From: an uncultured Gammaproteobacteria bacterium
GTDB lineage: Bacteria > Patescibacteriota > Microgenomatia > Levybacterales > GWA1-39-11
Length of the DNA: 64,000 nt
Reading direction: 5' to 3'
Assembly: GCA_964531275.1 (NCBI GenBank)
Contig: CAZHDZ010000002.1
Span: 58,180 to 122,179 of the forward strand
Shown here: positions 1-54,221 of the stretch, piece by piece
How positions within the stretch are numbered: position 1 is the stretch's first letter
How the letters are laid out: each line of letters opens with the position of its first letter
Position numbers and translations under genes: made by a program
The notes under the pieces: model-generated
Databases searched by the model: none
Told to the model about the DNA's origin: nothing
Seen by the model: the letters and a program-made list of their open reading frames with translations, nothing else

Positions 1-3000
1 AACACAAGATGTTACGTACACGCTTCCTCTAGATGACGGATCAAATAATTATGTTCTAACAACTGATGGTTCTGGGTTGTTGTCATGGCAGTCAGCATCT
101 GGCGTTGGTGCAGGTACCATAACAGCAGTCGGAAACGTTCTTTCAGGAACGGCATTTACTGGAAGCGATTCTCTTTCAAACAAAGGAAACACTCTCGTAT
201 TTGAAGGATCAACTTCAGTTGATGATGCGAATGACATTACGCTAACTGCAAGCAATCCTGTCTCATCCATAATATTTACGCTTCCAGATCTTGGTACAAA
301 CGGCACTTTTGCATTCCTTGAGGGTCTCCAGACTTTTACAGGGGCAAAGACCTTTAATGACATCACCATTGCCGATACAAACATCCCACTGTCAGGAGGA
401 AATACCACTCTGGACGTGACAGGTGGTGCAACTAGAACACTTACGTTGCTCAACTCAACAGGAGGTCAGGTAGCTGATTTTGATCTCTCAGACGGCTCGC
501 TATTAACTGCAGGTACATCAAGACTCACTAATGCAGGAGCTCTTCAAAATATAACCGGGTACAGCCAGTCATCCGGAAACTTCAGCCAGAGTGGCTCTGG
601 TAGTTTCTCAACAGGAACCGGGGCAGTATCTCTTAATGGCGCGACGACTACATCAACAACATTGGTAGTAGGGACCACATTAACAACCGGTGGAAGTGCA
701 AGCGTTTCTGGGAATCTAACTCTTGAAGGTGCTGGTCGATCGATTCAAACAACTGAGAACAACACATTAACACTTGGTGGCGCAACAACCGGAAATATTG
801 ACCTTAACGAAAATACCTATATTCTAGGAAGCAACACATTTAGTGTTGGTACAGGTCTTACTTCGCTTGGAGGAGCAATTAATGTAACCGGCGTTGCTAC
901 GTTTGATAACAACATTACCCAAACGGGTTCATCAACATTCTCAACAGGAACCGGTAATGTTACTTTGAACGGCAATACTACTGTTTCTACTGGTGTTTCT
1001 CTCACAGCAAACGGCCCGGTTGCTCTCGATCCTGATGGTGGTAATGACATTGTTCTTACAACTGCATTCGGAAGTGGTTCATACCTGCAAATAATCGGTC
1101 TTGATACTCAAACAGGTACTCAGCTTTGTATAGATGGTAGTAACCAAGTTGTTAAATGTAGCGCGGGGTCTACAACTTTGCAAGGGGCATATGATGGCGG
1201 CAATACAATAACAACCGCAAATAGCCGTGATATTGCAATTAATCTTGCCGGAAACGAGAATCTAACAGCTACAACATCTGCCGGTTCTAATGGTTATACA
1301 TCTTTTGCTTTGGCAAACGGATCAAATCCAAATCCACCATCCCAATTAGTGCTTATAGATAATCAGGATACAAATGAAGCCCTTCCAGCAGGACTAAGAA
1401 TAAAATCAGCAGGCGGAGGAATAACAACTGCAATTGATCTCTCTGATTCAGATATAGTAAATGCCCTTTCATTGGGTGCAAATGACGTTACTGCAACAAG
1501 CTTTGCAATAACCGGAAGCAATGGAAATATTTCAACAAATGGCACACTAACTGCTCTTGGAGATATTAATGCCAACTCGGGGGTTGTCGCAACAACCCAA
1601 ACCACTGCTTCTCTATTTAACTCAACTGTTACAAATCTTTCAGTTGGCAATGCCGCAACTACGCTTTCATTGGGAGCAGGAACAGGGACAACTACTGTAA
1701 ATAATGCCCTTAATGTAACTGGTCTTTCAACCTTCAATGCGGGGGCAACAATTCCATCAGGTCAGACACTGACGGCAAATGGACCTGTTGTTATCAATCC
1801 AAACCTTGGAAATGATATAACGCTTACAACTGATTATGTTGCTGGATCTGATCTGTATGTACCTGGTTTGGAGACGCCTGGAACTGCCGGAACTGCACTT
1901 TGTATTGAGACAGGCACTGACAGAGTTACAAAATGTTCTGCGTCAACATTTACACTCCAAGGAGCATATGACGGAGGAAATACAATCCTGACAACCGGTG
2001 GACGTGATATAGAATTTGATCTTGCCTCAGATGATAACTTTGCAATTACTACCGTTGCAGGATCGGTAAGCTACTCGGCTTTTGCTCTTGCAGATGGTTC
2101 AAATAGTGCGCCAGCTGGGCAACTAATATTAGTTGAAAATCAAGATCTTAATGAAGTTCTTGCCTCCGGCATAAAAGTTCAGTCTGCTGCAGGTGCAATC
2201 ACAAATGCACTTGACCTTTCAGATGCAGAAATAGTTAATGCGATATCCTTTGGCTTGAACAATATTGATGGTACTAACTTTGATGTCACCGGATCTAATG
2301 GGAATGTTACAACCGCAGGAGACATAGCGATAAATGGTGGAAATCTTACTACCACCCAAGCTGCATTTAATATCTTTAACACAGGTGTTGCTACATTAAA
2401 TATTGGCGGTGATGCAACAGCAATTTCTCTTGGAGATGGAACAAGTGTCACAACAATTAATGACGACCTTGTTGTATCAGGCGGAGTTCTTGATGCACTT
2501 TCTGCTCTTGCTCGAGTTGATTCATTGCAAGTTGGTGGAGGCTACGGTTCGACAGGTACAACAATCACAAATGCAGGAAATATCTCAACAAATGGAACTC
2601 TTACTGTTGATGGTATTTCAACACTAACTGGCTCTATCACAACTGCAGGGGATATTGCTGTAAATGGTGGAAATGTTACAACAACAGCAGGTACTGCTTA
2701 CCTATTTAATAGCGGTGCTACAACATTAAATATCGGTGGTGCTGCAACAACCCTTTCTCTTGGAGCATCAACAGGCACAACAACCGTTAACAACAACCTA
2801 ACGGTATCAGGTCTTATCTTGGCAAACGGCGGTATAACTATTCCAGCAGGTGAAGAACTGGCCGCAAGCGGAAGCGCTTCATTTGCACCAGACTTTACAA
2901 ATGACATAACATTCAATACTGATTCTGACTCCACAATCATCCTAAATGGAATTGGAACCGGAAGTGGAAACAGTCTCTGTCGAGAAGCTGGCACGAATAA

Positions 3001-6000
3001 TTTAGTTGAGTGTTCTGCCTCATCAATCACTTTGCAATCTGCATACAATGGCGGAAATACTATCTCAACTTCAGGTGGTCGAGATATTGCATTCACATTA
3101 AGTAACACTAACTTCAGCGCAACCGCTGCTGCTGGAACCAACTCATTCTCGCAATTTGCACTTGCTAACGGATCAAACGCAAATCCTGCAGGACAGGTTG
3201 TGTTAGTTGAAAATCTTGATACCGACCAGGCCATCGCAAGTGGCATTAGAATCCAGGCAGCCTCTGGAGGAATTACAAATGCACTCGATCTTTCAGATCC
3301 AGAGATTGTAAATGCTTTGTCTCTTGGAGCAAATGATATTACTGCAACTAACTTCTCAATTACAGGATCAACAGGTGCCTTTGCAACAAGCGATTCTATT
3401 ACTGCTTCAGGAGATATCAATGCCAACAGTGGAACAATTGCTTCTAATCAAGCAGCTGGGTTCTTATTTAATGCAGGTGTCTCTAATCTTTCCATAGGCG
3501 AGGATGCATCAACAATATCTCTTGGAGACGCGACAGGTACGATAACAATAAATAACCAGACACTCGCTCTTCCAAATGCAACTTCAATTACAGCAGCAGG
3601 TGCAGGACTTACCATTGGTTCTGTAACCGTGGGTGGTGGTTATGGAACGACTGGCACAACACTTTCAGGAAATGGGGACATTCAGACAAATGGTGCGCTA
3701 ACAGTTGATGGTATCTCTCAACTGTCTGGTAATGTTACGACCAACGGAGATTTGGCAGTTAATGGTGGCAACATAACCTCAACTCAAACGACCGCGAATC
3801 TATTTAACGCAACAGTAACAACCTTAAATATCGGAAGTGCAGCAACAACTGTTAGTTTGGGCGCAAACACCGGTACGACAACCGTAAATAATAATCTAGC
3901 TGTTTCGGATGCATTAACAGTTGGCCAACTTGCTACATTTAACGGTGGCGCTACTATTTCAAATGGAGAACGATTCTTGGCTTCTGGGTCAGCTGAATTT
4001 AATCCGAGTGGTTCAAATGACGTTTCAATTGCCGTTAGCTATAGTGCTGGTTCATACCTCCACATAACAGGTCTTGATACTCAGACCGGTACGACTCTTT
4101 GTATTGATGGATCAAGCAATGTTGTAAGATGCTCAGCTGCTTCAATCACATTGCAGTCTGCATATGATGGTGGAAATACAATTTCAACAACCGGTGGACG
4201 AAATATTGCGTACGTTCTCGCGAATGATGATGACTTTACGGTTACTACACCAGCAGGATCAACTGGTCAAAGCATCTTCTCACTCGCTAACGGCGGAGCA
4301 ACAAGTCCTTCAGAGCTTATCCTTGTATCAAACAATGATGTAGATACAACAATTGCCAACGGAATAACTATAAATTCTGCAGGAGGAGTTATTACTGACG
4401 CTCTTGATCTATCGGACTCTGAAATTGTAAACGCATTAAATCTTGGAGCAAATGATATTACCTCTTCCAACTTTACACTCACCGGTAGCAACGGAAATAT
4501 TTCAACAAATGGAACAATAACTGCTACTGGAGACATAACGACAACCGGCAATCTAGCTGTTAATGGTGGAAATATTACAACTACATCGACTGGCACTGCT
4601 GAAGTATTTAACTCAAATGCTACTGCTCTCAATATTGGTGGCGCTGCCGGCACAATCTCTATCGGTAATGGAACAAGTGTCACAACGGTTAATGATGATC
4701 TCGTTGTCTCTGGGGGCGCCCTTGATGCTCTCTCTGCTCTTGCCCGAGTTGACGGGTTACAAGTTGGTGGAGGATACGGTTCGACAGGTACAACTATTAC
4801 AAATGCTGGAAATATCTCAACCAATGGAACTCTTACTGTTGATGGTATTTCAACACTAACTGGATCTATCACAACTGCAGGGGATATTGCAGTAAATGGC
4901 GGAAATGTTACAACAACAGCTGGTACTGCTTACCTATTTAATAGTGGTGCTACAACATTAAATATTGGAGGGGCTGCAACTGCTATTACACTTGGAGCAA
5001 CCACAGGTACAACAACGGTAAGAAATAATTTGTCAGTATTAGGAAGTGCAAATGTCACCGGGTTCTCAACATTCAACGACAGAACGACTATTACTAACGG
5101 TCAGCAATTTAACGCATCAGGATCTGCTAACTTTAGTCCAAATATTGACAACGATGTTGTGATCAACACTGACGCTGATTCCTTCCTAACGCTTAATGGC
5201 CTTACCACTCCTGGTATTGCAGGGGACGCACTTTGTGTAGATGCATCAAATAACGTAACAAAGTGTTCTACAAATTCTGTTACTTTGCAATCTGCATACA
5301 ACGGCGGAAATACTATCTCAACCAGCGGTGGAAGAGATATTGCTTTTACTCTTAACAATACTAACTTCAGTGCAACTGCAGCAGCAGGAACCAACTCATT
5401 CAGTCAATTTGCATTGGCAAATGGATCTAATGCAAATCCTGCAGGACAAGTTGTGTTAGTTGAAAATCTTGATACAGACGAAGCAATCGCAAGTGGTATT
5501 AGAATCCAGGCTGCCTCTGGAGGAATTACAAATGCACTTGATCTTTCAGATCCTGAGATCGTAAATGCATTATCTCTTGGGGCGAATAACGTAGTTGCAA
5601 CCAATTTCTCAATAGCAGGATCAACTGGATCTATCACAACTGCAGGGGATATTGCTGTAAATGGTGGAAATGTTACAACAACAAATACAACAGCTGCATT
5701 ATTTAATACAAACGCTACAACTCTTTCTATCGGTGGTGCCGCAACGACCTTAACTCTTGGTAATGCTGCCGGCACAACTGCAGTTGCCGGAGGGCTTACT
5801 GTTGGTGGTGGATATGGATCAACCGGTGTAACGTTGTCCTCCGCAGGGGTAATTCAAGCGAACGGAGCCTTAACTGTTGACGGTATCTCAACTTTAACAG
5901 GATCTGTTACAACCGCCGGAGACATTGCGGTTAACGGCGGAAATGTTACGACAACAGCTGGTACTGCTTACTTGTTTGATACTAATGCTACAACATTAAA

Positions 6001-42130: not shown

Positions 42131-42300
42131 ATTGTGGACCCAAGAGGACTCGTTCTGCAACGCAGTGCGAAGCACAATCTGACCTAAAGTATCACGCTCA
42201 ACATGTGATTATTGTGGACGATACAGAATTCGAATCTGTGACCTTTACAATGTCAATGTAACGCTCTACGATTTGCAAAGCAAATTGAGTGCTCCAGCTG
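42131..42300 (-). repeat. Two degenerate partial copies of the tRNA-Val 3' region directly downstream of the intact gene.
   Basis: 42212-42300 retains the D-stem 3' side, an identical anticodon arm (TTACATTGACATTGTAA), and a T-arm and acceptor 3' side (ACAGATTCGAATTCTGT, ATCGTCCA) with compensatory changes, but has no matching acceptor 5' strand. 42135-42152 is an exact 18-nt copy of the T-arm/acceptor 3' end (CGAGTCCTCTTGGGTCCA). All three copies are followed by CAAxA. Confidence 0.6.
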
Positions 42301-47436: not shown

Positions 47437-49077
47437 TTAATTTAGTCTTGCATTGTGAAGTGCAGTTATGTCAAAAAGTACTCCTCTTAAGTTTTCCCTT
47501 TGTAGTGCTGATTCCTGGCCAGTTGCTTGCTGAAGTACGACTTCTGTCTGGGCTAACATTTCTATGGCATCTTTAAGGTCAGTTCCCTGCGGAACATCAT
47601 ACTCGGTAGCGTAATACACGGGTTTATGTCCGATGTCTGTTATGAGAGATATTCCAATTTGTTCCTGAGGATCTATTAATCTTTGTTCTTCCCAGGCCTC
47701 AACATCATCAGCTACTTGCTGTAAATTTATTCTTTCATCTTGATCTTCACTTTTTGCTATCTTATTTTTTACAAAGTCAACAAGGCCATCTGAATTAGCT
47801 TCACGTCTCAGGAAGTCTCTCACTGCACAAAAATGCCTTTCAGACCTTCCACCAATAGTTATATTTACATCAACTGCTTCGCCCTCGCTCCCAAAATACC
47901 CATCAGAAGGAATTGCTAATTGATCTCGAAAAACCAGGGGGTGTATTGCTGCATATTCGGCTGCATTTTCTGCGCCATTGTCACCACCGTGATTATTGCC
48001 TAATTCCTGAAGCGTAGCGATGGTGTCCATAACTGCAGGATCAGTGCTGCTTTTCAAAAGATGGGCTAGATATTCACGAGCAACTCTAGTTCCCAATTGG
48101 TGTTCATCCCAAGGAACATCTTCCCTGTATTCAACTGCACTACTAATGTCAGGATAGGTACCGTCGATGAATCCTTTCATTGCTTCCATATTCTGTGCAG
48201 TTCTTCCCGGAATTTTTTCAGGATCCATTCGTTGGCTTACAGTATTTATTGCAATTGCAGCTTGATGTGCGAAAAAGAATTCTGCTGTTGGAAGTTGTTG
48301 TAGGATTCCTGCTTTCCTTCTAACCTCTTCCTGTTCATCTCCTGTAAGAACTGCTTCAACACCTATACTGTCAATTTCCTGAGCAATTGAAGCTCTTTGA
48401 CCTTGGGAAAGGAAATCAATATTCAAATACTCTTTCACAGTATCAATACCCTTTTTGTTTGCCGCTTGCCTCATTTTTGTGGATTCTCTTTTGGAATAAA
48501 TTTGTGATAGTCCGTCAAGAATTCGCATAGCTGGAATGCCATACGCCGGAAGTCTTGCGGGTGTAAAGTCATCATCGGAACCACCAAACCCAGTTCGTAT
48601 TGCAACCCTGGTATCAGGGTTTTTAGCCATCATAATGGCAGCTTCTACAACATGAAGAGATTGATTCTGTTGAACCATTGATATGTAGTTGTCTGATCCA
48701 ACTATAACTTTTGTAATTGAAGGAGCAAGTTCTGATATATTGGTAAAAGTATTTCGTGCTTCATCGCTAACAAATTCACCAGTATCAGTAAATAATTCTG
48801 CGCACTGTCTTCTAACAACTTCTGCGCTTTGTGCTATGAATGATCGGCGATATTTCTTCTCAAGTGGCGAAAATGGTGCATTTCCATCAACAAAAACTTT
48901 GATTCGATTGTCTGCATTATCTTCGAAAGGCTTAATAAGTTTTACTTGAAGCGCTTCAAGTTGCTTGTTGGCAACGCCAAAGCTTGCCTCTGCAGGCTGA
49001 ATGCTTGAAAATTCAAATTGTTGTGTTGGTATTTCAGCTGTCATATTTTTCCATTGGTTTGTCTTCTCAAACCACAA
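47437..49077 (-). CDS. Hypothetical protein (546 aa).
   Basis: The long ORF abuts the 526-aa gene (stop and start adjacent). The TTG start at 49077 sits 5 nt after a GGGAGG inside the upstream hairpin; an alternative ATG lies at 49044. Confidence 0.6.
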   Translation of the reverse strand: MWFEKTNQWKNMTAEIPTQQFEFSSIQPAEASFGVANKQLEALQVKLIKPFEDNADNRIKVFVDGNAPFSPLEKKYRRSFIAQSAEVVRRQCAELFTDTGEFVSDEARNTFTNISELAPSITKVIVGSDNYISMVQQNQSLHVVEAAIMMAKNPDTRVAIRTGFGGSDDDFTPARLPAYGIPAMRILDGLSQIYSKRESTKMRQAANKKGIDTVKEYLNIDFLSQGQRASIAQEIDSIGVEAVLTGDEQEEVRRKAGILQQLPTAEFFFAHQAAIAINTVSQRMDPEKIPGRTAQNMEAMKGFIDGTYPDISSAVEYREDVPWDEHQLGTRVAREYLAHLLKSSTDPAVMDTIATLQELGNNHGGDNGAENAAEYAAIHPLVFRDQLAIPSDGYFGSEGEAVDVNITIGGRSERHFCAVRDFLRREANSDGLVDFVKNKIAKSEDQDERINLQQVADDVEAWEEQRLIDPQEQIGISLITDIGHKPVYYATEYDVPQGTDLKDAIEMLAQTEVVLQQATGQESALQRENLRGVLFDITALHNARLN

Positions 49078-49212
49078 AAAAACCTCCCTTTTGGGGAGGT
49101 CGTTAATACACGAAAAACCTCCCCTAGCGCTGGCTAAGAAGGAGGTCTAGTAAGATTACTGAATTTCGTGTCATGTTATGTACCATTATATCAATTCATT
49201 TGTCTTTGACAA
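49074..49212 (-). promoter_or_regulatory. Promoter (TTGTCA-16-TATAAT) plus a leader with two tandem CCUCC/GGAGG hairpins and a U7 tract 5' of the 546-aa gene.
   Basis: Minus strand: -35 at 49207-49212, -10 at 49185-49190. The leader reads GACCUCCUUCUUAGCCAGCGCUAGGGGAGGUUUUU ... GACCUCCCCAAAAGGGAGGUUUUUUUGUGG. The first hairpin's 5' arm (GACCUCCUU) mimics the 16S 3' end. Confidence 0.5.
49076..49099 (-). terminator. Intrinsic-terminator-like hairpin CCUCCC-CAAA-AGGGAGG + U7. It could terminate the 49221 gene and also sequesters the SD of the 546-aa gene.
   Basis: Minus strand CCTCCCCAAAAGGGAGGTTTTTTTGTGG. Confidence 0.55.
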
Positions 49213-49220
49213 GAGCTTTT

Positions 49221-49625
49221 TTATTCATTTTCCGCACCTTCTCCTGCCTCAGATTCCCCAAATTCGCTACCTTCGATCTCGAAAGATGCACCGTTTTCTA
49301 TTCCTGCTCCTTCTACTTCATTGGTGCCTATTGCTGCTAATTCCATAGTCACTTCTGCAACGCCCACAGAAAATTCATGACCATGAGACATATCAATTCC
49401 AAACCCGCCTATTTCCATTGGAACAATAGATATATCGAAAAGACTATTTGAAGCACTTACTTCCTGGGTGGCAAACCCTCCCGCTAATTCGACATTAAAG
49501 TCATCAACAGCCGGATTGAGCTCTATCTCTCGCGGTTCAAATTTCCTTTTTCGCTCCAAAGAACGTTCTATCCCGGACATCACTGTACGTACTTGATCTA
49601 ATTGTTGTTGTATATCCATTTCCAT
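49221..49625 (-). CDS. Hypothetical acidic protein (134 aa).
   Basis: Monocistronic: the leader hairpin/U7 element is upstream (49643-49666) and a promoter for the next gene is immediately downstream. The C-terminal third is Glu/Gly-rich. Confidence 0.5.
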   Translation of the reverse strand: MEMDIQQQLDQVRTVMSGIERSLERKRKFEPREIELNPAVDDFNVELAGGFATQEVSASNSLFDISIVPMEIGGFGIDMSHGHEFSVGVAEVTMELAAIGTNEVEGAGIENGASFEIEGSEFGESEAGEGAENE

Positions 49626-49642
49626 AGTTTGTTAAAAGGCAC

Positions 49643-49700
49643 AAAAAAACCTCCCAAAGTGGGAGGTCAAATTATTATTTTCTCCCACGAAAAGCTACGC
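49643..49700 (-). promoter_or_regulatory. CCUCCCA-CUU-UGGGAGG + U7 hairpin with an upstream decoy (CGUGGGAG), followed by a 14-codon uORF (GUG start) overlapping the start of the acidic-protein gene.
   Basis: Minus strand UUUUCGUGGGAGAAAAUAAUAAUUUGACCUCCCACUUUGGGAGGUUUUUUUGUGCCUUUUAACAAACUAUGGAAAUGG. The decoy GUGGGAG is exactly complementary to the 5' arm CUCCCAC. Confidence 0.45.
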
Positions 49701-49755
49701 CTTGATAAGGTGAAGTCTTCGTGTGTAAGAAAATTGCATGTCCATACGTAATATA

Positions 49756-50151
49756 TTACACTTTTGAGGCTGCAATGTCAATTTCTGCGGTTGCTGCTAT
49801 TTCAACCAAGGCGTTTAGCGGAAGTGACACAACGCCAACTGTGTATCGAGCTGGTTTCGAATCGCCGAGATATTTTGCATACACTTCGTTAAATTTTGCG
49901 TAATTGCTCAAGTCTGATAAAAAACATTGTGTTTGGACAACATCAGAAAGAGAAGATCCCGCCTCCTCAAGAACCGCTTTAAGGTTTGAAATTACTTGCT
50001 CTGTCTGACCTTCAATATCAGCTGCCTCTATCGTGCCACTAATCGGATTTATTCCAATTTGCCCCGAGCAAAAGACAAATCCACCGCTTACGATTGCTTG
50101 CGAATAGGGCCCTACAACTGTCGGTGCCTTAGAGGTAAAGACTGTTTTCAT
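49756..50151 (-). CDS. ridA: RidA (YjgF/TdcF) family reactive-enamine/imine deaminase.
   Basis: 131 aa. The full-length sequence is characteristic of the YjgF fold. It sits immediately downstream of threonine dehydratase (1-nt junction). Confidence 0.85.
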   Translation of the reverse strand: MKTVFTSKAPTVVGPYSQAIVSGGFVFCSGQIGINPISGTIEAADIEGQTEQVISNLKAVLEEAGSSLSDVVQTQCFLSDLSNYAKFNEVYAKYLGDSKPARYTVGVVSLPLNALVEIAATAEIDIAASKV

Positions 50152-51399
50152 TTATATGATGTAATTATACAAAAGATCGCTGTGCTTAATCGGCGTATAG
50201 GAAATACCTATGCTGTCTAGCCTTTTGATTAAAGGCTCGTAGTCATTTTTTGAAGCAAGCTCTATTCCGACCAGTGCAGGGCCGGTCTCTCGGGAAGTTT
50301 TTTTGACATATTCAAATCTGACTATGTCATCCGTAGGTCCAAGAGCTTTGTCTACAAATGCTCGCAGTTGTCCTGGCTTTTGGGCAAATTTAAGAAGAAA
50401 ATAGTGCTTTCTTCCTTGATGTATCAAGCTTCTTTCCATAATCTCCGGGTATCTTAGGATGTCATTATTTCCTCCGCTTAGTACGCAAACAACAGTTTTG
50501 CCTTTTAACTTTTTTTTGAGGCTATATAGGGCTGCGATTGAGAGTGCTCCCGCAGGCTCAGCTACGATCCCCTCATTTTGATAAAGGTCAATCATGGTTG
50601 TACATATTTGCCCCTCAGAAATAAGTACTACTTCTTTCACAAGCCTTTTAATTATTGAAAAGGATATATCCCCGGGCTTTTTAACAGCAGCACCATCTAC
50701 AAATGTATCTATGTGATCAAGCTCTACTACCTCACCCTTTTTAAGGGACTCATACATGCTGGGGGCACCTTCCGGTTCTGCGCCAATGAATACAGTATGA
50801 GGTGAGACATGGGAAAAATATGAACTAACTCCAGACAAGAATCCCCCTCCACCAATTGGAGCAATGAAATAATCGATACTGCTTCCCAATTCTTCATAAA
50901 TTTCTTTTCCTACAGTTCCTTGGCCAGCAATTACATCAATGTCATTGAAAGGATGAACAAAAATAGCGTTTTTCTTTTCGCACACCTCTATGGCTTTTTT
51001 GTAAGCTTCGTCATACGTATTGCCAAACAACTCAATAGTTATATGTGAGTTGCCAAACTCTCTGACTCTTTTTATTTTTTGTAACGGGGTCGTTGTGGGC
51101 ATAAAAATTGTTGTTGAAATTCCTAGTTCTTTTGCAGCAAATGCAACTCCTTGTGCATGATTGCCTGCGCTTGCTGCGACTACTCCTTGCTGTCTCTCCT
51201 TTGGGGTTAGCATGGACATTTTGTTGTAGGCACCTCGTATTTTGTATGATCTAACGATCTGCTGGTCTTCTCTCTTAATATAAACTTGAGCCTCAAATTC
51301 TTGAGATAGACGCTCTGAAAGCATAAGCTCGGTGCGTTTTACGGTACCGCTTAGTCTTTTGGCTGCTTCGTTAATATGATTAAGAGTTATTACGTTCAT
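50152..51399 (-). CDS. ilvA: Threonine dehydratase (PLP-dependent; catalytic domain plus C-terminal regulatory ACT-like domain).
   Basis: PLP-lysine motif VRSYKIRGAYNKM, ASAGNHAQGVA, and a G-rich PLP loop GGGGF. 415 aa. Confidence 0.85.
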   Translation of the reverse strand: MNVITLNHINEAAKRLSGTVKRTELMLSERLSQEFEAQVYIKREDQQIVRSYKIRGAYNKMSMLTPKERQQGVVAASAGNHAQGVAFAAKELGISTTIFMPTTTPLQKIKRVREFGNSHITIELFGNTYDEAYKKAIEVCEKKNAIFVHPFNDIDVIAGQGTVGKEIYEELGSSIDYFIAPIGGGGFLSGVSSYFSHVSPHTVFIGAEPEGAPSMYESLKKGEVVELDHIDTFVDGAAVKKPGDISFSIIKRLVKEVVLISEGQICTTMIDLYQNEGIVAEPAGALSIAALYSLKKKLKGKTVVCVLSGGNNDILRYPEIMERSLIHQGRKHYFLLKFAQKPGQLRAFVDKALGPTDDIVRFEYVKKTSRETGPALVGIELASKNDYEPLIKRLDSIGISYTPIKHSDLLYNYII

Positions 51400-51586
51400 T
51401 CCATAAGCAAAGCTTGTGTCTTTTCAAGCCAATCCCTGTCTTTCAAAGCCATAAAAAAACCTCCCATTTTTGGGAGGTCGTGCGTCTTAAAAGATCAACA
51501 CCCTCCCTAGGAAGGAATAATAATGTCGATAATTTGAAGACTTCGGTGCATAAAAGTAATGTACTACTGCTAGGGAAAAAAGTCAA
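51400..51586 (-). promoter_or_regulatory. ilvA leader: candidate promoter (TTGACT-17-TACATT), three-segment GGGAGGG / CCUCCCA / GGGAGG-U7 switch, and an 18-codon uORF whose stop overlaps the ilvA AUG (AUGA).
   Basis: Minus strand CCUUCCUAGGGAGGGUG...CGACCUCCCAAAAAUGGGAGGUUUUUUUAUGGCUUUGAAAGAC...CUUAUGGAAUGAACG. The hairpin's 3' arm GGGAGG is the SD of the uORF at 7-nt spacing. Confidence 0.45.
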
Positions 51587-51626
51587 TTGGGATTGACATA
51601 TTGGGCTAATTTGATATGATTTATTC

Positions 51627-51752
51627 AACGTGAAAAATTGTACATACATGAGAACTTCCCATTTCGGCACTCGATGCTGAGGGAATTTCTGTGTTTGTTC
51701 AATTTTCAAAACGAGCTCAAGAACTTCCCGCCAGCAAGGGAAGTTTTTTTTT
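51627..51752 (+). ncRNA. Candidate small RNA (~125 nt) with a consensus sigma70 promoter and a Rho-independent terminator.
   Basis: -35 TTGACA at 51593-51598, 16-nt spacer, -10 TATGAT at 51615-51620. The terminator is CUUCCC-GCCAGCAA-GGGAAG + U9 at 51724-51752. The body has two related hairpins sharing the 5' arm GAACUUCCC. No ORF of plausible composition. Confidence 0.45.
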
Positions 51753-51949
51753 GGGCTTTTTTTGGCTCTTTCACTTATCAAAGCGTTCGAAAATGCATTT
51801 TCGCACGCTACCATGTATTCGTCTTGGGAAGCTTTGTTTCCCGTAAGCCATAACGACCAACATTCATACAGGAGAGGTGTCCTTTGGCAGTCCCGAGCAT
51901 GTCGCTTGCAGAACTTTCGGCTGTTGCCGACTCCAACGGGGTGATTTGG

Positions 51950-52345
51950 TCATCCCACGTCAACTGCTCTAAGCCCTGGTTGGGCTACGGAGTGAACCTG
52001 ATTCTAGGCGAGAAAAACGCGGCAGAGGTCGACTTTTCTTTCTGTAAGGAAGTCTGGCAAAAACCCCCGCAGGGGTGGACTGTCCTTCTTCGCGTTGAGC
52101 GAGACGCATGCGAGGCGCACATGATGCGCCTGAAGCCAACCGGGGAGAACGAAACGTTCTTCTTCATGAGGGCCAGGGTTAACCTGAGCTCAAGCCCGAC
52201 ATGGATGAGTCTGGCTGGGACTGGGCTTGTCCGGACCAGGACTTACCGCGCAGGTATGCGTCGGAACAAGAACCGCGTGTCGGTTGGTCGCGTAAAACGT
52301 GAGTCGGTTACAGAGGAGGTATAAGTGAACAAACGTGGGTTGAGT
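51950..52345 (-). ncRNA. rnpB: RNase P RNA (bacterial type-A-like).
   Basis: Minus strand contains GGUAAGUCCUGG (P4 5' strand; cf. GGAAAGUCCGGG). CCAGGGCUUAGAGCAGUUGACGUGGG forms the P4 3' strand and 3' end (cf. CCCGGCUUAUCGGUCAGUUUCACC). UCAGGUUAACCCUGG matches CCAGGUAACGCCUGG, GGCGCAUCAUGUGCGCC is P12-like, and ACAGUCCACCCCUGCGGGGG is present. P1 is CCCACGU/ACGUGGG. ~900 bp lacks any credible ORF. Confidence 0.6.
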
Positions 52346-52413
52346 AAAAGTTGGCAAGTTCTACTTGCTGGCCGCTTGCAGTTTTTGCAAGCACTCGACC
52401 CCATTTCTTAGAT

Positions 52414-53091
52414 TTAGCCGCTTTGAGTTGCTACTGCACGGTCAATATTCTGAGTGAAGCTGGTTCCACCCTTTTTAGCCATAGCTTGATATCCTTTTTC
52501 GGCTTTTCGTCCTTTGAATAATTTGGCGTATGTCACGCCATCTTGCACCTTATCTCTCATCTTTATAACTAACTTCAAAAATCCCTCATAGAAGGTAAGG
52601 TGATAAACTCCAGGTTTGTCTGGAACATCGTCAATAACTACGTCTTTGAATACATTTTCAAGTTCATCTGATGAATCTTTAAGATTTCTAAGTTCTGCAA
52701 GAATTTGTTCTAATTGTTGTTTTATACCAAGAGATGCTTCGTCTGATTTTCGTCCTTCAGTTGCACCCTTGAATTCAGCGAAATACTGCATATGCTCTGC
52801 AGTAACTTCTACTTTTTGATGAGATTCGCTACCGTCATGAGATTCTTCTTTTTTATGTCCACCAACTGAGTGTGCCTCACCGTGCTTGAGTTCAATTCCG
52901 AAAACTTGGTTGATAACGACATTGAATTCAGTCTTTGCTTCACCTGCAACAACTTTTTGTGCAGTTTTAATTGCTTCCGTGTCTACAATCTTGGGTTTTT
53001 TTGCAGATTCAAAGAACTTCTTAAAAATAGAAGTTGCGTCGTGAATCCTTTCCTCTCCAGTGTATTTGGGTGTTCCCCCTTGTTTTTTCAT
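52414..53091 (-). CDS. Hypothetical Lys/Glu-rich protein (225 aa).
   Basis: Clean ORF. A tandem-repeat promoter region lies upstream. Confidence 0.5.
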   Translation of the reverse strand: MKKQGGTPKYTGEERIHDATSIFKKFFESAKKPKIVDTEAIKTAQKVVAGEAKTEFNVVINQVFGIELKHGEAHSVGGHKKEESHDGSESHQKVEVTAEHMQYFAEFKGATEGRKSDEASLGIKQQLEQILAELRNLKDSSDELENVFKDVVIDDVPDKPGVYHLTFYEGFLKLVIKMRDKVQDGVTYAKLFKGRKAEKGYQAMAKKGGTSFTQNIDRAVATQSG

Positions 53092-53181
53092 TGCCGTTTC
53101 TGCCTAAATCGACACCGATATTATACCACCTAAGTTCAAATTTATCAATTCAAATCATGAAATGCAAGTAACAGAATAGTA

Positions 53182-53275
53182 AGAAATTATATCTATTCTG
53201 TTGACGCAAGCTTCGCTTACGTTAAGAAATTATATCTATTCTGTTGACGCAAGCTTCGCTTACGTTAAGAAATTC
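53182..53275. repeat. 43-bp tandem direct repeat (2.2 copies).
   Basis: Unit AGAAATTATATCTATTCTGTTGACGCAAGCTTCGCTTACGTTA recurs at 53182 and 53225 with a partial third copy. Each unit carries a TATAAT on the minus strand and the 14-nt motif GCAAGCTTCGCTTA. Confidence 0.85.
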
Positions 53276-53333
53276 TTAAAATAATAAGGGTTTTTCATCG
53301 TCTACACTCAACTGACGAGAAAAACAGGTTGAA

Positions 53334-54221
53334 TTAAAGTGTGCTGAGGAAGGTGACGGTCTTTTGCTGACGGATAATTGATGCTACTAAATAAGGGTTT
53401 TTCATAATTTCTTCTCTTTCGGTAGGATTTTCAATAGAAGCCAGTGCCTTTTCAATATCTTCTTTATCTACAGTTATTTTCTCTTCATCTGCTATTTTTC
53501 TTAATAAAAATTCTAATTTGAGATCGTTTTCTGCCTTTAGCTTGTATTCATCTCTTAATTTTTCAGCATCAATATTTTTAGATGAAAGATATTGTTCTAG
53601 GGTTAATCCGAGCTTTTTGAGTTCATCTAGCATTTGTGAGAGAAGGCGTGATGTCTCGCTTTCAACAAGCACATCAGGGATAGTGATTTTTGCGGCTTTT
53701 AGTGCTGCCTCCAATATTCCATCAAGGTCTACCTTGCTTTCCTCTTTACCAGGTACAAGGATTTTTGATTTTGCTGTTACTTTTGCTATTTCTTCTTTGT
53801 ATTTGCCCAGTTCAACCATTGGTTCTTCGCAGGTTTGAGCTGTAAATTGAATATCAGTACCTTCAGTAAAAATTTCAATATGAATTTGAGGGCTAATTAT
53901 TGGAGTTAGTTTGTGTTTTGTAATAGCCTCATTGTAGGCAACTCCTACGACTTTCTTAAGAACCTCTTCTTTTACAAGTTCTGGATTGAGTCTTGCCTTT
54001 GCGACATTTTTTGGAGCCTGTCCTGGTCTAAATCCTGCGATCTTAACGCTTTTAATCAGTTCATTTTCAATTGCATCCTGTGCTTTTTGAGCTTGAGTCC
54101 ATGGCACAACAATAGTTAGTTCAAGAGTGCCGTCATCCTTTCGGATCAACCCCTCTTTTCTAGGAGAGTGATCGTGCGCCTGATTTTCGCTTTGTGTAGC
54201 AGGTTTGTCTGATTTAGCCAT
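53334..54221 (-). CDS. tig: Trigger factor, short form: ribosome-binding N-domain plus C-domain, no PPIase domain.
   Basis: Signature GFRPGQAPKNV in the N-domain. It is 295 aa, whereas canonical trigger factor is ~430 aa. Confidence 0.7.
   Translation of the reverse strand: MAKSDKPATQSENQAHDHSPRKEGLIRKDDGTLELTIVVPWTQAQKAQDAIENELIKSVKIAGFRPGQAPKNVAKARLNPELVKEEVLKKVVGVAYNEAITKHKLTPIISPQIHIEIFTEGTDIQFTAQTCEEPMVELGKYKEEIAKVTAKSKILVPGKEESKVDLDGILEAALKAAKITIPDVLVESETSRLLSQMLDELKKLGLTLEQYLSSKNIDAEKLRDEYKLKAENDLKLEFLLRKIADEEKITVDKEDIEKALASIENPTEREEIMKNPYLVASIIRQQKTVTFLSTL

Follow-up and report, generated by a model that had tools for sequence, protein, structure and literature searches.

The 64-kb stretch of DNA analysed here (contig CAZHDZ010000002.1, positions 58,180 to 122,179; hereafter the window) derives, as far as its genes tell, from a Levybacteria-like bacterium of the Candidate Phyla Radiation (CPR). 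Between ilvA, on the minus strand, and a gene of the DUF5660 family it carries a compact module, in which a promoter and a structured leader RNA with a short open reading frame (ORF) and an intrinsic terminator (51593–51752 in total) precede a 146-aa gene, referred to below as the orphan gene. Neighbouring genes include members of DUF5660 and DUF5665, and the best named matches of ilvA come from Levybacteria. Leaders homologous to that of the window were compared across five lineages (the window, L002, L009, L010 and L011), the comparison contigs being those that encode either ilvA homologues or members of the orphan family. The module and its immediate surroundings comprise the following features.

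51582–51597, no strand assigned: inverted repeat GTCAATtgggATTGAC (GTCAAT-tggg-ATTGAC), which holds the −35 hexamers of two divergent promoters.
51593–51620, plus strand: leader promoter of the sigma-70 type, with TTGACA, a 16-nt spacer, TATGAT and an extended −10 TG.
51630–51680, plus strand: predicted near-leaderless short ORF MKNCTYMRTSHFGTRC, 16 codons, from GTG to TGA.
51634–51706, plus strand: hairpin 1 (1:2 pairing, anti-antiterminator), approx. 29 bp.
51681–51729, plus strand: antiterminator (2:3 pairing), formed by the 3' arm of hairpin 1 (51681–51694) and the 5' arm of the terminator (51719–51729).
51719–51752, plus strand: intrinsic terminator (3:4 pairing), AAGAACUUCCC-gccagcaa-GGGAAGUUUUU, followed by a run of nine U (U9).
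51753–51883, plus strand: remainder of the 5' untranslated region (UTR), with a conserved hairpin, AACGACC and a Shine-Dalgarno sequence, and with no conserved promoter.
51884–52324, plus strand: orphan gene, 146 aa, TTG start, recognised by homologues, codon-position GC, Shine-Dalgarno sequence and predicted structure.
52337–52409, plus strand: structure of two hairpins in a Y shape, with a U-rich tail, at the 3' end of the orphan gene (24 pairs, eight of them compensatory).

The leader promoter, which an earlier note on this DNA had already pointed out, was recovered with TTGACA at 51593–51598, TATGAT at 51615–51620 and TG at 51612–51613; its score of 11/12 is the highest of any plus-strand site within 50000–53500. 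Promoters scoring 10–11/12 occupy the equivalent place in all five loci, and between the divergent neighbour and the start of the orphan ORF no other promoter is conserved in all of them. A separate promoter for the orphan gene was considered and rejected, the spacer between leader and gene having no further candidate in the window, L002 or L011, and only weak, non-homologous 9/12 sites in L009 and L010.

Every member of the orphan family that was found has the leader directly upstream and on the same strand (5/5 lineages). R1, a covariance model of the five leaders, gave them scores of 120–135 bits (window, L002, L009, L010/L012/L029/L030, L027/L028 and L011), and over 113 kb of compared sequence nothing else exceeded 30 bits. 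The genes on the far side vary, being ilvA or unrelated small genes. In L002, the ilvA of which is 88% identical, the layout is that of the window, with a strongly conserved leader and an orphan ORF that is down to 27% identity; in L009, L010, L011 and the close variants L027–L030 the orphan gene is convergent with DUF5660 and its divergent neighbour is not ilvA. Five contigs with a 75% identical ilvA possess neither the orphan gene nor the leader: they lack the entire module of approx. 840 nt, from the leader through the ORF to the 3' structure, the distance from the DUF5660 gene to ilvA is approx. 130 nt, and DUF5660 abuts the ilvA leader. Since the leader always accompanies the gene and is absent where the gene is absent, the RNA element and the orphan gene form one unit. 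Set against L003–L008, the stretch 51400–52413 shows the module to be present or absent as a whole among close relatives, and always at the 3' end of DUF5660. No target-site duplication was noticed when the junctions were read by eye, no systematic comparison having been made, and from the sequences at hand insertion and loss of the module cannot be told apart.

A strict search for the terminator pattern retrieved a single genome contig, identical to L010, and nothing from metagenome_contigs, which is an incomplete collection. An exact match to the pattern does exist in a JGI contig (L027, 3300005324; positions 5778–5902), although metagenome_contigs returned zero; because this match is missing from the collection, the negative result is weak evidence of absence. 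Members of the cluster at 90% identity contributed just two further substitutions.

The inverted repeat that the earlier note had described is present at 51582–51597, and its minus-strand half indeed supplies the −35 box of the ilvA-leader promoter while its plus-strand half supplies that of the leader promoter. The suggestion that it acts as an operator shared by the two divergent promoters did not hold, because the spacing of the −35 boxes varies among the loci: the gap from GTCAA to TTGAC is 6, 7, 8, 20 or 56 nt, conservation in the region is limited to the TTGAC cores, and relatives lacking the module retain just the TTGAC of the ilvA side (its −35 box). The A-tract said to precede the promoter exists as well; it forms the spacer of the promoter on the minus strand, and its conservation does not extend to L002. 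In L010 CACACACTGGGAGTGTGGGA is present twice in tandem (355–400) in the interval that separates the divergent promoters, and this accounts for the 56-nt gap in that contig.

Folding of the RNA from 51627 yields a 73-nt hairpin followed by the terminator. A 128-nt version has a free energy of −43.7 kcal/mol (z = −4.8, 0/200 shuffles as stable) and a 134-nt version gives z = −6.4; across the five leaders the z-scores range from −4.7 to −5.7, with 0/200 shuffles as stable. Hairpin 1 consists of a 5' arm with the core AGAACUUCCC at 51651–51660, an apical stem at 51664–51680 and a 3' arm, GGGAAUUUCUGUG, from 51681 onwards. Here the structural description in the earlier note proved accurate: the nested UCGGCA/UGCUGA stem was found within hairpin 1, the CUUCCC/GGGAAG terminator was confirmed as a stem at 51719–51748 (arms 51719–51729 and 51738–51748) ahead of the U9 run, and the two hairpins do have a common 5' arm, the 10-mer AGAACTTCCC occurring both at 51651–51660 and at 51720–51729. 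If the arms of hairpin 1 are called segments 1 and 2, and those of the terminator segments 3 and 4, this duplication is accounted for by segments 1 and 3 mimicking each other and competing for segment 2.

The covariation check on homologous regions that the earlier note had proposed was carried out on the alignment of the five leaders. In it 92% of pair cells are paired, as compared with 42–57% when the partners are slid by 1–3 columns; both sides change in nine pairs, which was matched by 2/500 shuffles, and the covariation score was matched by 0/500, figures that are supportive and not decisive because they derive from a fitted alignment of no more than five sequences. In the middle of hairpin 1 positional covariation is blurred by slippage of the register between lineages, and this hairpin was for that reason judged by pair counts, slide controls and energies. 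Its apical and internal loops differ between copies (CUCGA, AAG, GAAGA, GCAA). The terminator is paired in 100% of cells, with one compensatory change from C-G to U-A in L009, has energies of −12 to −14.8 kcal/mol across the five loci, and in each of them sits downstream of the promoter and ahead of the regulated gene, in the same orientation as both.

The alternative 2:3 pairing is likewise preserved. With region 1 blocked the antiterminator has an energy of −14.6 kcal/mol in the RNA of the window, the range for the five lineages being −14.6 to −18.8; in 5/5 loci it thus equals or exceeds the terminator in stability. As long as segment 1 is blocked and segment 4 has still to be transcribed, the 2:3 hairpin has the lowest energy of all folds. 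The energy of the 2:3 duplex alone, −10.1 to −15.9 kcal/mol, is better than that of 96.6–100% of shuffled versions of segment 2. On fixed columns 92.7% of the 2:3 cells are paired, against 33–78% when slid. One antiterminator pair (columns 66:98) changes on both sides, from C-G to U-A, and, as read by eye from the alignment rows, its partner in segment 1 changes in step, the pattern expected of two competing helices that share one strand. The linker between the two hairpins, also judged by eye from the rows, is the only unpaired stretch and is partly conserved.

Contrary to the statement that no plausible ORF overlaps the RNA, a 16-codon GTG ORF at 51630–51680 is conserved in the five leaders. 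In the window it begins 9 nt past the −10 box, and in all five loci an RTG start codon, which is ATG in L009 and GTG in the other four, lies 7–9 nt past that box, so that the transcript would be leaderless or nearly so. The homologous peptides are MKNCSNIKMHFLTGVRR, MRNYTNKIYFLIGRRG, MRNYTTIRHFLLGRKT and MKNYTIVRHLLIGRKV. Position, length and stop site are conserved in 5/5 leaders, the length being 16 codons except in L002, which has 17 owing to a 3-nt insertion that leaves the frame intact. The ORF spans segment 1 and the apical stem, and its stop codon (UGA or UAG) falls immediately 5' of segment 2. The peptides of L009–L011 and L002 share M-[KR]-N-[YC]-[TS]..[RK]-[HY]-[FL]-L. No Shine-Dalgarno sequence precedes the short ORF, which would require leaderless initiation.

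What the computations establish is a conserved promoter, hairpin, terminator and alternative pairing, together with strict linkage to one gene. On this basis we regard it as likely that the element is a cis-acting terminator/antiterminator leader of the orphan gene, the conserved choice between terminator and antiterminator and the conserved short ORF being the grounds for calling it an attenuator. The fuller reading, by which 51593–51752 is the promoter and 5' leader of the orphan gene and works as a transcription attenuator in the manner outlined here, has the balance of probability on its side, and for the ribosome-dependent version of the switch the chances seem about even. Transcription would start approx. 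7–8 nt past TATGAT, the RNA thus beginning almost at the GUG codon. By default, segment 1 (AGAACUUCCC and flanks) would pair with segment 2 (GGGAAUUUCUGUG) into hairpin 1, leaving segment 3 (AAGAACUUCCC) free for segment 4 (GGGAAGUUUUU); RNA polymerase would then terminate in the U9 run and release an RNA of approx. 125 nt. Were segment 1 occupied, segments 2 and 3 would pair, no terminator would form and transcription would continue into the gene. The likeliest occupant is a ribosome translating the near-leaderless 16-codon ORF, which we presume to be translated. Stalled at about codons 8–12, the ribosome would cover segment 1 and leave segment 2 free (gene ON), whereas at the stop codon it would sit on segment 2 (gene OFF); with no translation 1:2 and 3:4 would both form (gene OFF). 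Ribosome stalling would accordingly be the trigger of the switch. A more tentative extension, which we find rather doubtful, is that the leader senses ribosome stalling in general (for example translation stress, an antibiotic or peptide-specific arrest) and not the supply of one amino acid, and that it induces a stress-related orphan protein; with the three sibling units described below counted in, the CPR lineage would then regulate a block of small genes singly through near-leaderless short ORFs.

Several observations weigh against this reading. Five leaders amount to few independent sequences, and with an alignment fitted to the model the covariation statistics are weak. The chance of an open 16-codon frame is approx. 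0.33–0.41 per sequence, and the +2 frame is likewise open in 3/5 leaders. The peptide is loosely conserved, that of the window departing from the shared motif. In most copies the start codon is GUG and not AUG, and leaderless use of GUG has to be presumed for this lineage. None of the five peptides contains a run of a single amino acid, so that the classical logic of amino-acid sensing fails and this role of the short ORF was rejected. Finally, with segment 1 partly masked the terminator state is still the minimum-energy one in several full-length copies at equilibrium; the switch must therefore be kinetic.

The reading gains from other units of the same kind in the neighbourhood. The whole window was scanned for a sigma-70-type promoter with a start codon 5–11 nt past the −10 box, an ORF of 9–24 codons and an intrinsic terminator. 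Only four units were recovered, all within 49077–51750 (2.7 kb), and apart from the element itself these are:

51454–51586, minus strand: divergent ilvA leader, with promoter TTGACT-17-TACATT, near-leaderless upstream ORF (uORF) MHRSLQIIDIIIPS and terminator.
49640–49755, minus strand: unit before a 134-aa gene, with promoter, near-leaderless 16-codon uORF MDMQFSYTRRLHLIKA and terminator.
49077–49215, minus strand: unit before a 546-aa gene, with promoter, near-leaderless 16-codon uORF MTRNSVILLDLLLSQR and terminator.

The uORF of ilvA contains a run of isoleucines (IIDIII) that is conserved in L002, L003 and L004, and MTRNSVILLDLLLSQR a run of leucines (LLDLLL) conserved in relatives; judging from these sequences the leaders of ilvA and of the 546-aa gene are very probably genuine amino-acid attenuators with a near-leaderless start. 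Counterparts of the leaders of the 134-aa and 546-aa genes were found in L002, L004, L011 and L027. The siblings (ilvA leader 51551–51454, units at 49745 and 49174) resemble the element in promoter type, in the order of hairpin and then terminator, in the distance from the −10 box to the start codon (6–10 nt) and in ORF length (14–16 codons), and this shared layout and near-leaderless start make the attenuator reading of the element reasonable. R1 matches sibling leaders weakly (E = 0.0067 for the 49174 unit and 7e-5 to 3e-3 in L002, L003 and L011), with only E = 0.5–2.5 for ilvA leaders. The siblings differ in having a CCUCCC/GGGAGG terminator, the 3' arm of which serves also as the Shine-Dalgarno sequence (in the ilvA leader GGGAGG resembles that of the next start codon), and a gene start directly behind the U-run, whereas the element has a CUUCCC/GGGAAG terminator and 130 nt to its gene; two of the siblings, unlike the element, have Ile or Leu runs.

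The same switch could be worked by a factor other than the ribosome. In this version an RNA-binding protein, for instance the basic product of the orphan gene regulating itself, would stabilise or melt hairpin 1, and the short ORF would be incidental. A long, covarying and conserved hairpin is a plausible protein site, the C-terminal helix of the orphan protein is strongly basic (9–13 K+R among the last 30 residues), the short-ORF peptide is not well conserved with open frames common by chance, and leaders that a protein controls on the same principle exist, that of L10 among them (PMC4538822). However, the loop sequences, apical and internal, are not conserved, while the short ORF keeps its start codon, its stop site and, across an indel, its frame, and the three sibling units clearly look ribosome-dependent; we consider such a factor unlikely. 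Less probable still is the proposal of the earlier note that the approx. 125-nt RNA is itself the functional product, an independent small RNA (sRNA) that pairs with other mRNAs, the position of the gene being secondary. A discrete terminated transcript of this size is a reasonable prediction and its structure is conserved: with its own strong promoter and terminator and a default fold that favours termination, such an RNA should accumulate, and attenuator-derived RNAs can work in trans, as does rnTrpL (PMC6614838). A free-standing trans-acting role is another matter, because the element was never found without the orphan gene, is always co-oriented with it, is absent where the gene is absent and provides the only conserved promoter of that gene. 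Moreover, the conserved 2:3 pairing would serve no purpose in a pure sRNA, the linker as the only unpaired stretch is merely partly conserved, and the window offers no second copy and no obvious partner. The idea of a dual-function RNA comes closer to the truth insofar as the RNA carries a small ORF, and by analogy with rnTrpL the terminated leader could have a secondary role in trans.

Two further proposals fit the layout and little else. A type III toxin-antitoxin system, with the leader as RNA antitoxin followed by the terminator and the toxin gene, would explain the order of promoter, short non-coding RNA, terminator and small basic ORF, the accessory nature of the module among close relatives, and an ORF that evolves fast and has foreign-looking codon usage. 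Yet the RNA has no tandem repeats (only the 10-nt arm is duplicated), the protein has no match of the ToxN/CptN/TenpN type in Pfam, PADLOC or PHROGs, its predicted fold is a generic beta-sandwich and no phage copies were found; with neither repeats nor a toxin-like protein, this reading was rejected as very improbable. A metabolite riboswitch, in which hairpin 1 would be the aptamer and a ligand would decide between terminator and antiterminator, has in its favour an expression platform of just this type. The absence of any Rfam family match to the element speaks against it (the best score was Phe_leader with 20.5 bits, the gathering score being 55), and so does the simplicity of hairpin 1, which is almost fully paired and the loops and bulges of which differ between the five leaders in both size and sequence, leaving no conserved ligand pocket; we give it hardly any credence. 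An Rfam scan, another of the checks suggested earlier, returned only tRNAs in the window, and within 51300–52500 nothing at E ≤ 10 except sub-threshold Phe_leader-like matches to two leaders, of which the ilvA leader scored 26 bits. The earlier view that the RNA is not 6S, signal recognition particle (SRP) RNA or transfer-messenger RNA (tmRNA) agrees with this: none of these, and no tRNA, was found at the locus by Rfam or, for tmRNA, by ARAGORN.

The attenuator proposed here is an unannotated example of a well-known kind of regulator and introduces no new regulatory principle. With the trp, his, ilv and leu attenuators it shares a short ORF close to the promoter, here a predicted one, and four segments, the pairing of which would either terminate (1:2 with 3:4) or allow read-through (2:3), and, as in attenuators of amino-acid operons generally, a stop codon lies beside segment 2 and an intrinsic terminator before the regulated gene. 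It differs from them in having no codon run, mostly GUG starts and an orphan rather than a biosynthetic gene under its control, in the unusual length of hairpin 1 (approx. 29 bp) with its additional apical stem, and in approx. 130 nt more UTR, with its own Shine-Dalgarno sequence, past the terminator. A leaderless attenuator with a three-hairpin model has been described for ilvBNC of Corynebacterium glutamicum, in which, as in the element, the first hairpin includes the 5' end of the leaderless message (PMC11857589). In the mycobacterial 'Cys ribulon' (bioRxiv 10.1101/834739) unannotated leaderless AUG or GUG short ORFs stand, as the predicted one would here, at the 5' ends of transcripts, in several units per genome, and their translation state controls downstream genes via alternative RNA pairing; that system operates at the level of translation, where it frees a ribosome-binding site otherwise sequestered, and uses poly-Cys tracts, whereas the element has an intrinsic terminator, would act on transcription and has no codon tract. 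Early termination in the leader also frees an RNA of approx. 100–125 nt carrying a small ORF in the case of rnTrpL, an attenuator-derived sRNA of Sinorhizobium meliloti with demonstrated function in trans (PMC6614838), with the difference that there is no indication of targets here.

A comparison that is a lead only is that with antibiotic-responsive leader-peptide attenuators, found by Term-seq before resistance genes, in which, as proposed here, a short ORF without an amino-acid codon run sets the choice of terminator or antiterminator by ribosome stalling. The element has no Shine-Dalgarno-led short ORF, and nothing marks the orphan protein as a resistance factor. To our knowledge, gene regulation in CPR/Patescibacteria is almost unstudied, the organisms being uncultured, and a full-text literature search for leader-peptide attenuators in this group found no paper. 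The element is mainly notable for its CPR host, the apparent leaderless GUG start, the absence of a codon run for any amino acid and the odd nature of the gene that it would regulate. From sequence alone, four probable attenuators with near-leaderless short ORFs emerge within 2.7 kb; two of them would read Ile and Leu, respectively, and the one considered here would control the orphan gene. Two likely annotation errors are put right as well, by which a GC-rich coding gene was taken for rnpB and a leader for an sRNA. If the reading is true, R1 could be used to annotate such leaders; there would be indirect evidence for leaderless initiation, including that at GUG, in the lineage; and a functionally uncharacterised protein family would have gained a regulatory handle.

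The gene downstream of the leader lies in a GC-rich block (51800–52350) that had been taken for an adjacent rnpB. The plus strand of this block does fold better than the minus strand, yet Rfam returned no RNase P match in 51760–52400, even with the threshold relaxed from the gathering score to E ≤ 10, and the segment is coding, the block containing the plus-strand ORF 51884–52324; the rnpB assignment was therefore dropped. Its GC content by codon position is 0.55, 0.48 and 0.67 (GC3 > GC1 > GC2), the GC3 of neighbouring genes is approx. 0.3, the genome overall has 41% GC, and a Shine-Dalgarno sequence, GGAGAGGTG, stands at 51871–51879. HMMER, run in full against 1.84 billion cluster representatives, found three relatives of 142–150 aa with 31–39% identity, and L002 encodes a fifth family member (27% identity, E = 2e-7). 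The homologues overall measure 141–150 aa at 27–39% identity; a profile search added no more members, the family thus comprising five clusters among approx. 15 billion proteins. Elsewhere the gene lies at 312–758 (minus strand) in L002, 1043–1495 in L009, 666–1094 in L010 and 3001–3444 in L011. All these signatures argue that the ORF is a real protein-coding gene, and one that appears to evolve fast. Throughout the family, in genomes that are AT-rich, GC3 is 0.56–0.67 as compared with 0.28–0.37 in adjacent genes; this high GC3 and the divergence may stem from transfer on repeated occasions, from selection that acts on mRNA structure or from rare codons being used deliberately.

An AlphaFold2 model of the orphan protein (mean pLDDT 78.6) shows a beta-sandwich and a basic C-terminal helix. 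Searches of Pfam, PADLOC and PHROGs gave no match for the protein, and Foldseek gave no informative one in PDB or BFVD, the best fold matches being carbohydrate-binding modules (E approx. 0.01, TM ≤ 0.4). A phage origin of the GC-rich gene was considered and set aside, no match having been found in PHROGs or among the viral structures of BFVD. A relaxed search for the terminator pattern in viral contigs recovered generic terminators only, with R1 scores of ≤ 25 bits.

Within the remaining 5' UTR a hairpin, GGGAAGC-UUUG-UUUCCC (51826–51842), and the adjoining AACGACC (together within 51826–51848) are conserved in the five loci with some covariation, and could represent a second, translational, control point. 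The Y-shaped structure at 52337–52409 separates the orphan gene from the convergent DUF5660 gene and, by its sequence, is likely the terminator of the module; L010 has a single long hairpin in its place.

On the minus strand, an 18-codon ORF, MALKDRDWLEKTQALLME, follows directly past the ilvA-leader terminator (51397–51453), and its stop overlaps the annotated ilvA start (ATGA). The ilvA genes of relatives start at the position of this ORF, which may reflect either translational coupling or a mis-set ilvA start in the window. Away from the module, a weak Rfam tRNA match (31 bits, gathering score 29; truncated, model positions 6–65) was found at 42221–42285 on the minus strand; ARAGORN made no call at this site, which lies beside a normal tRNA-Val and may be a degenerate tRNA or pseudogene.

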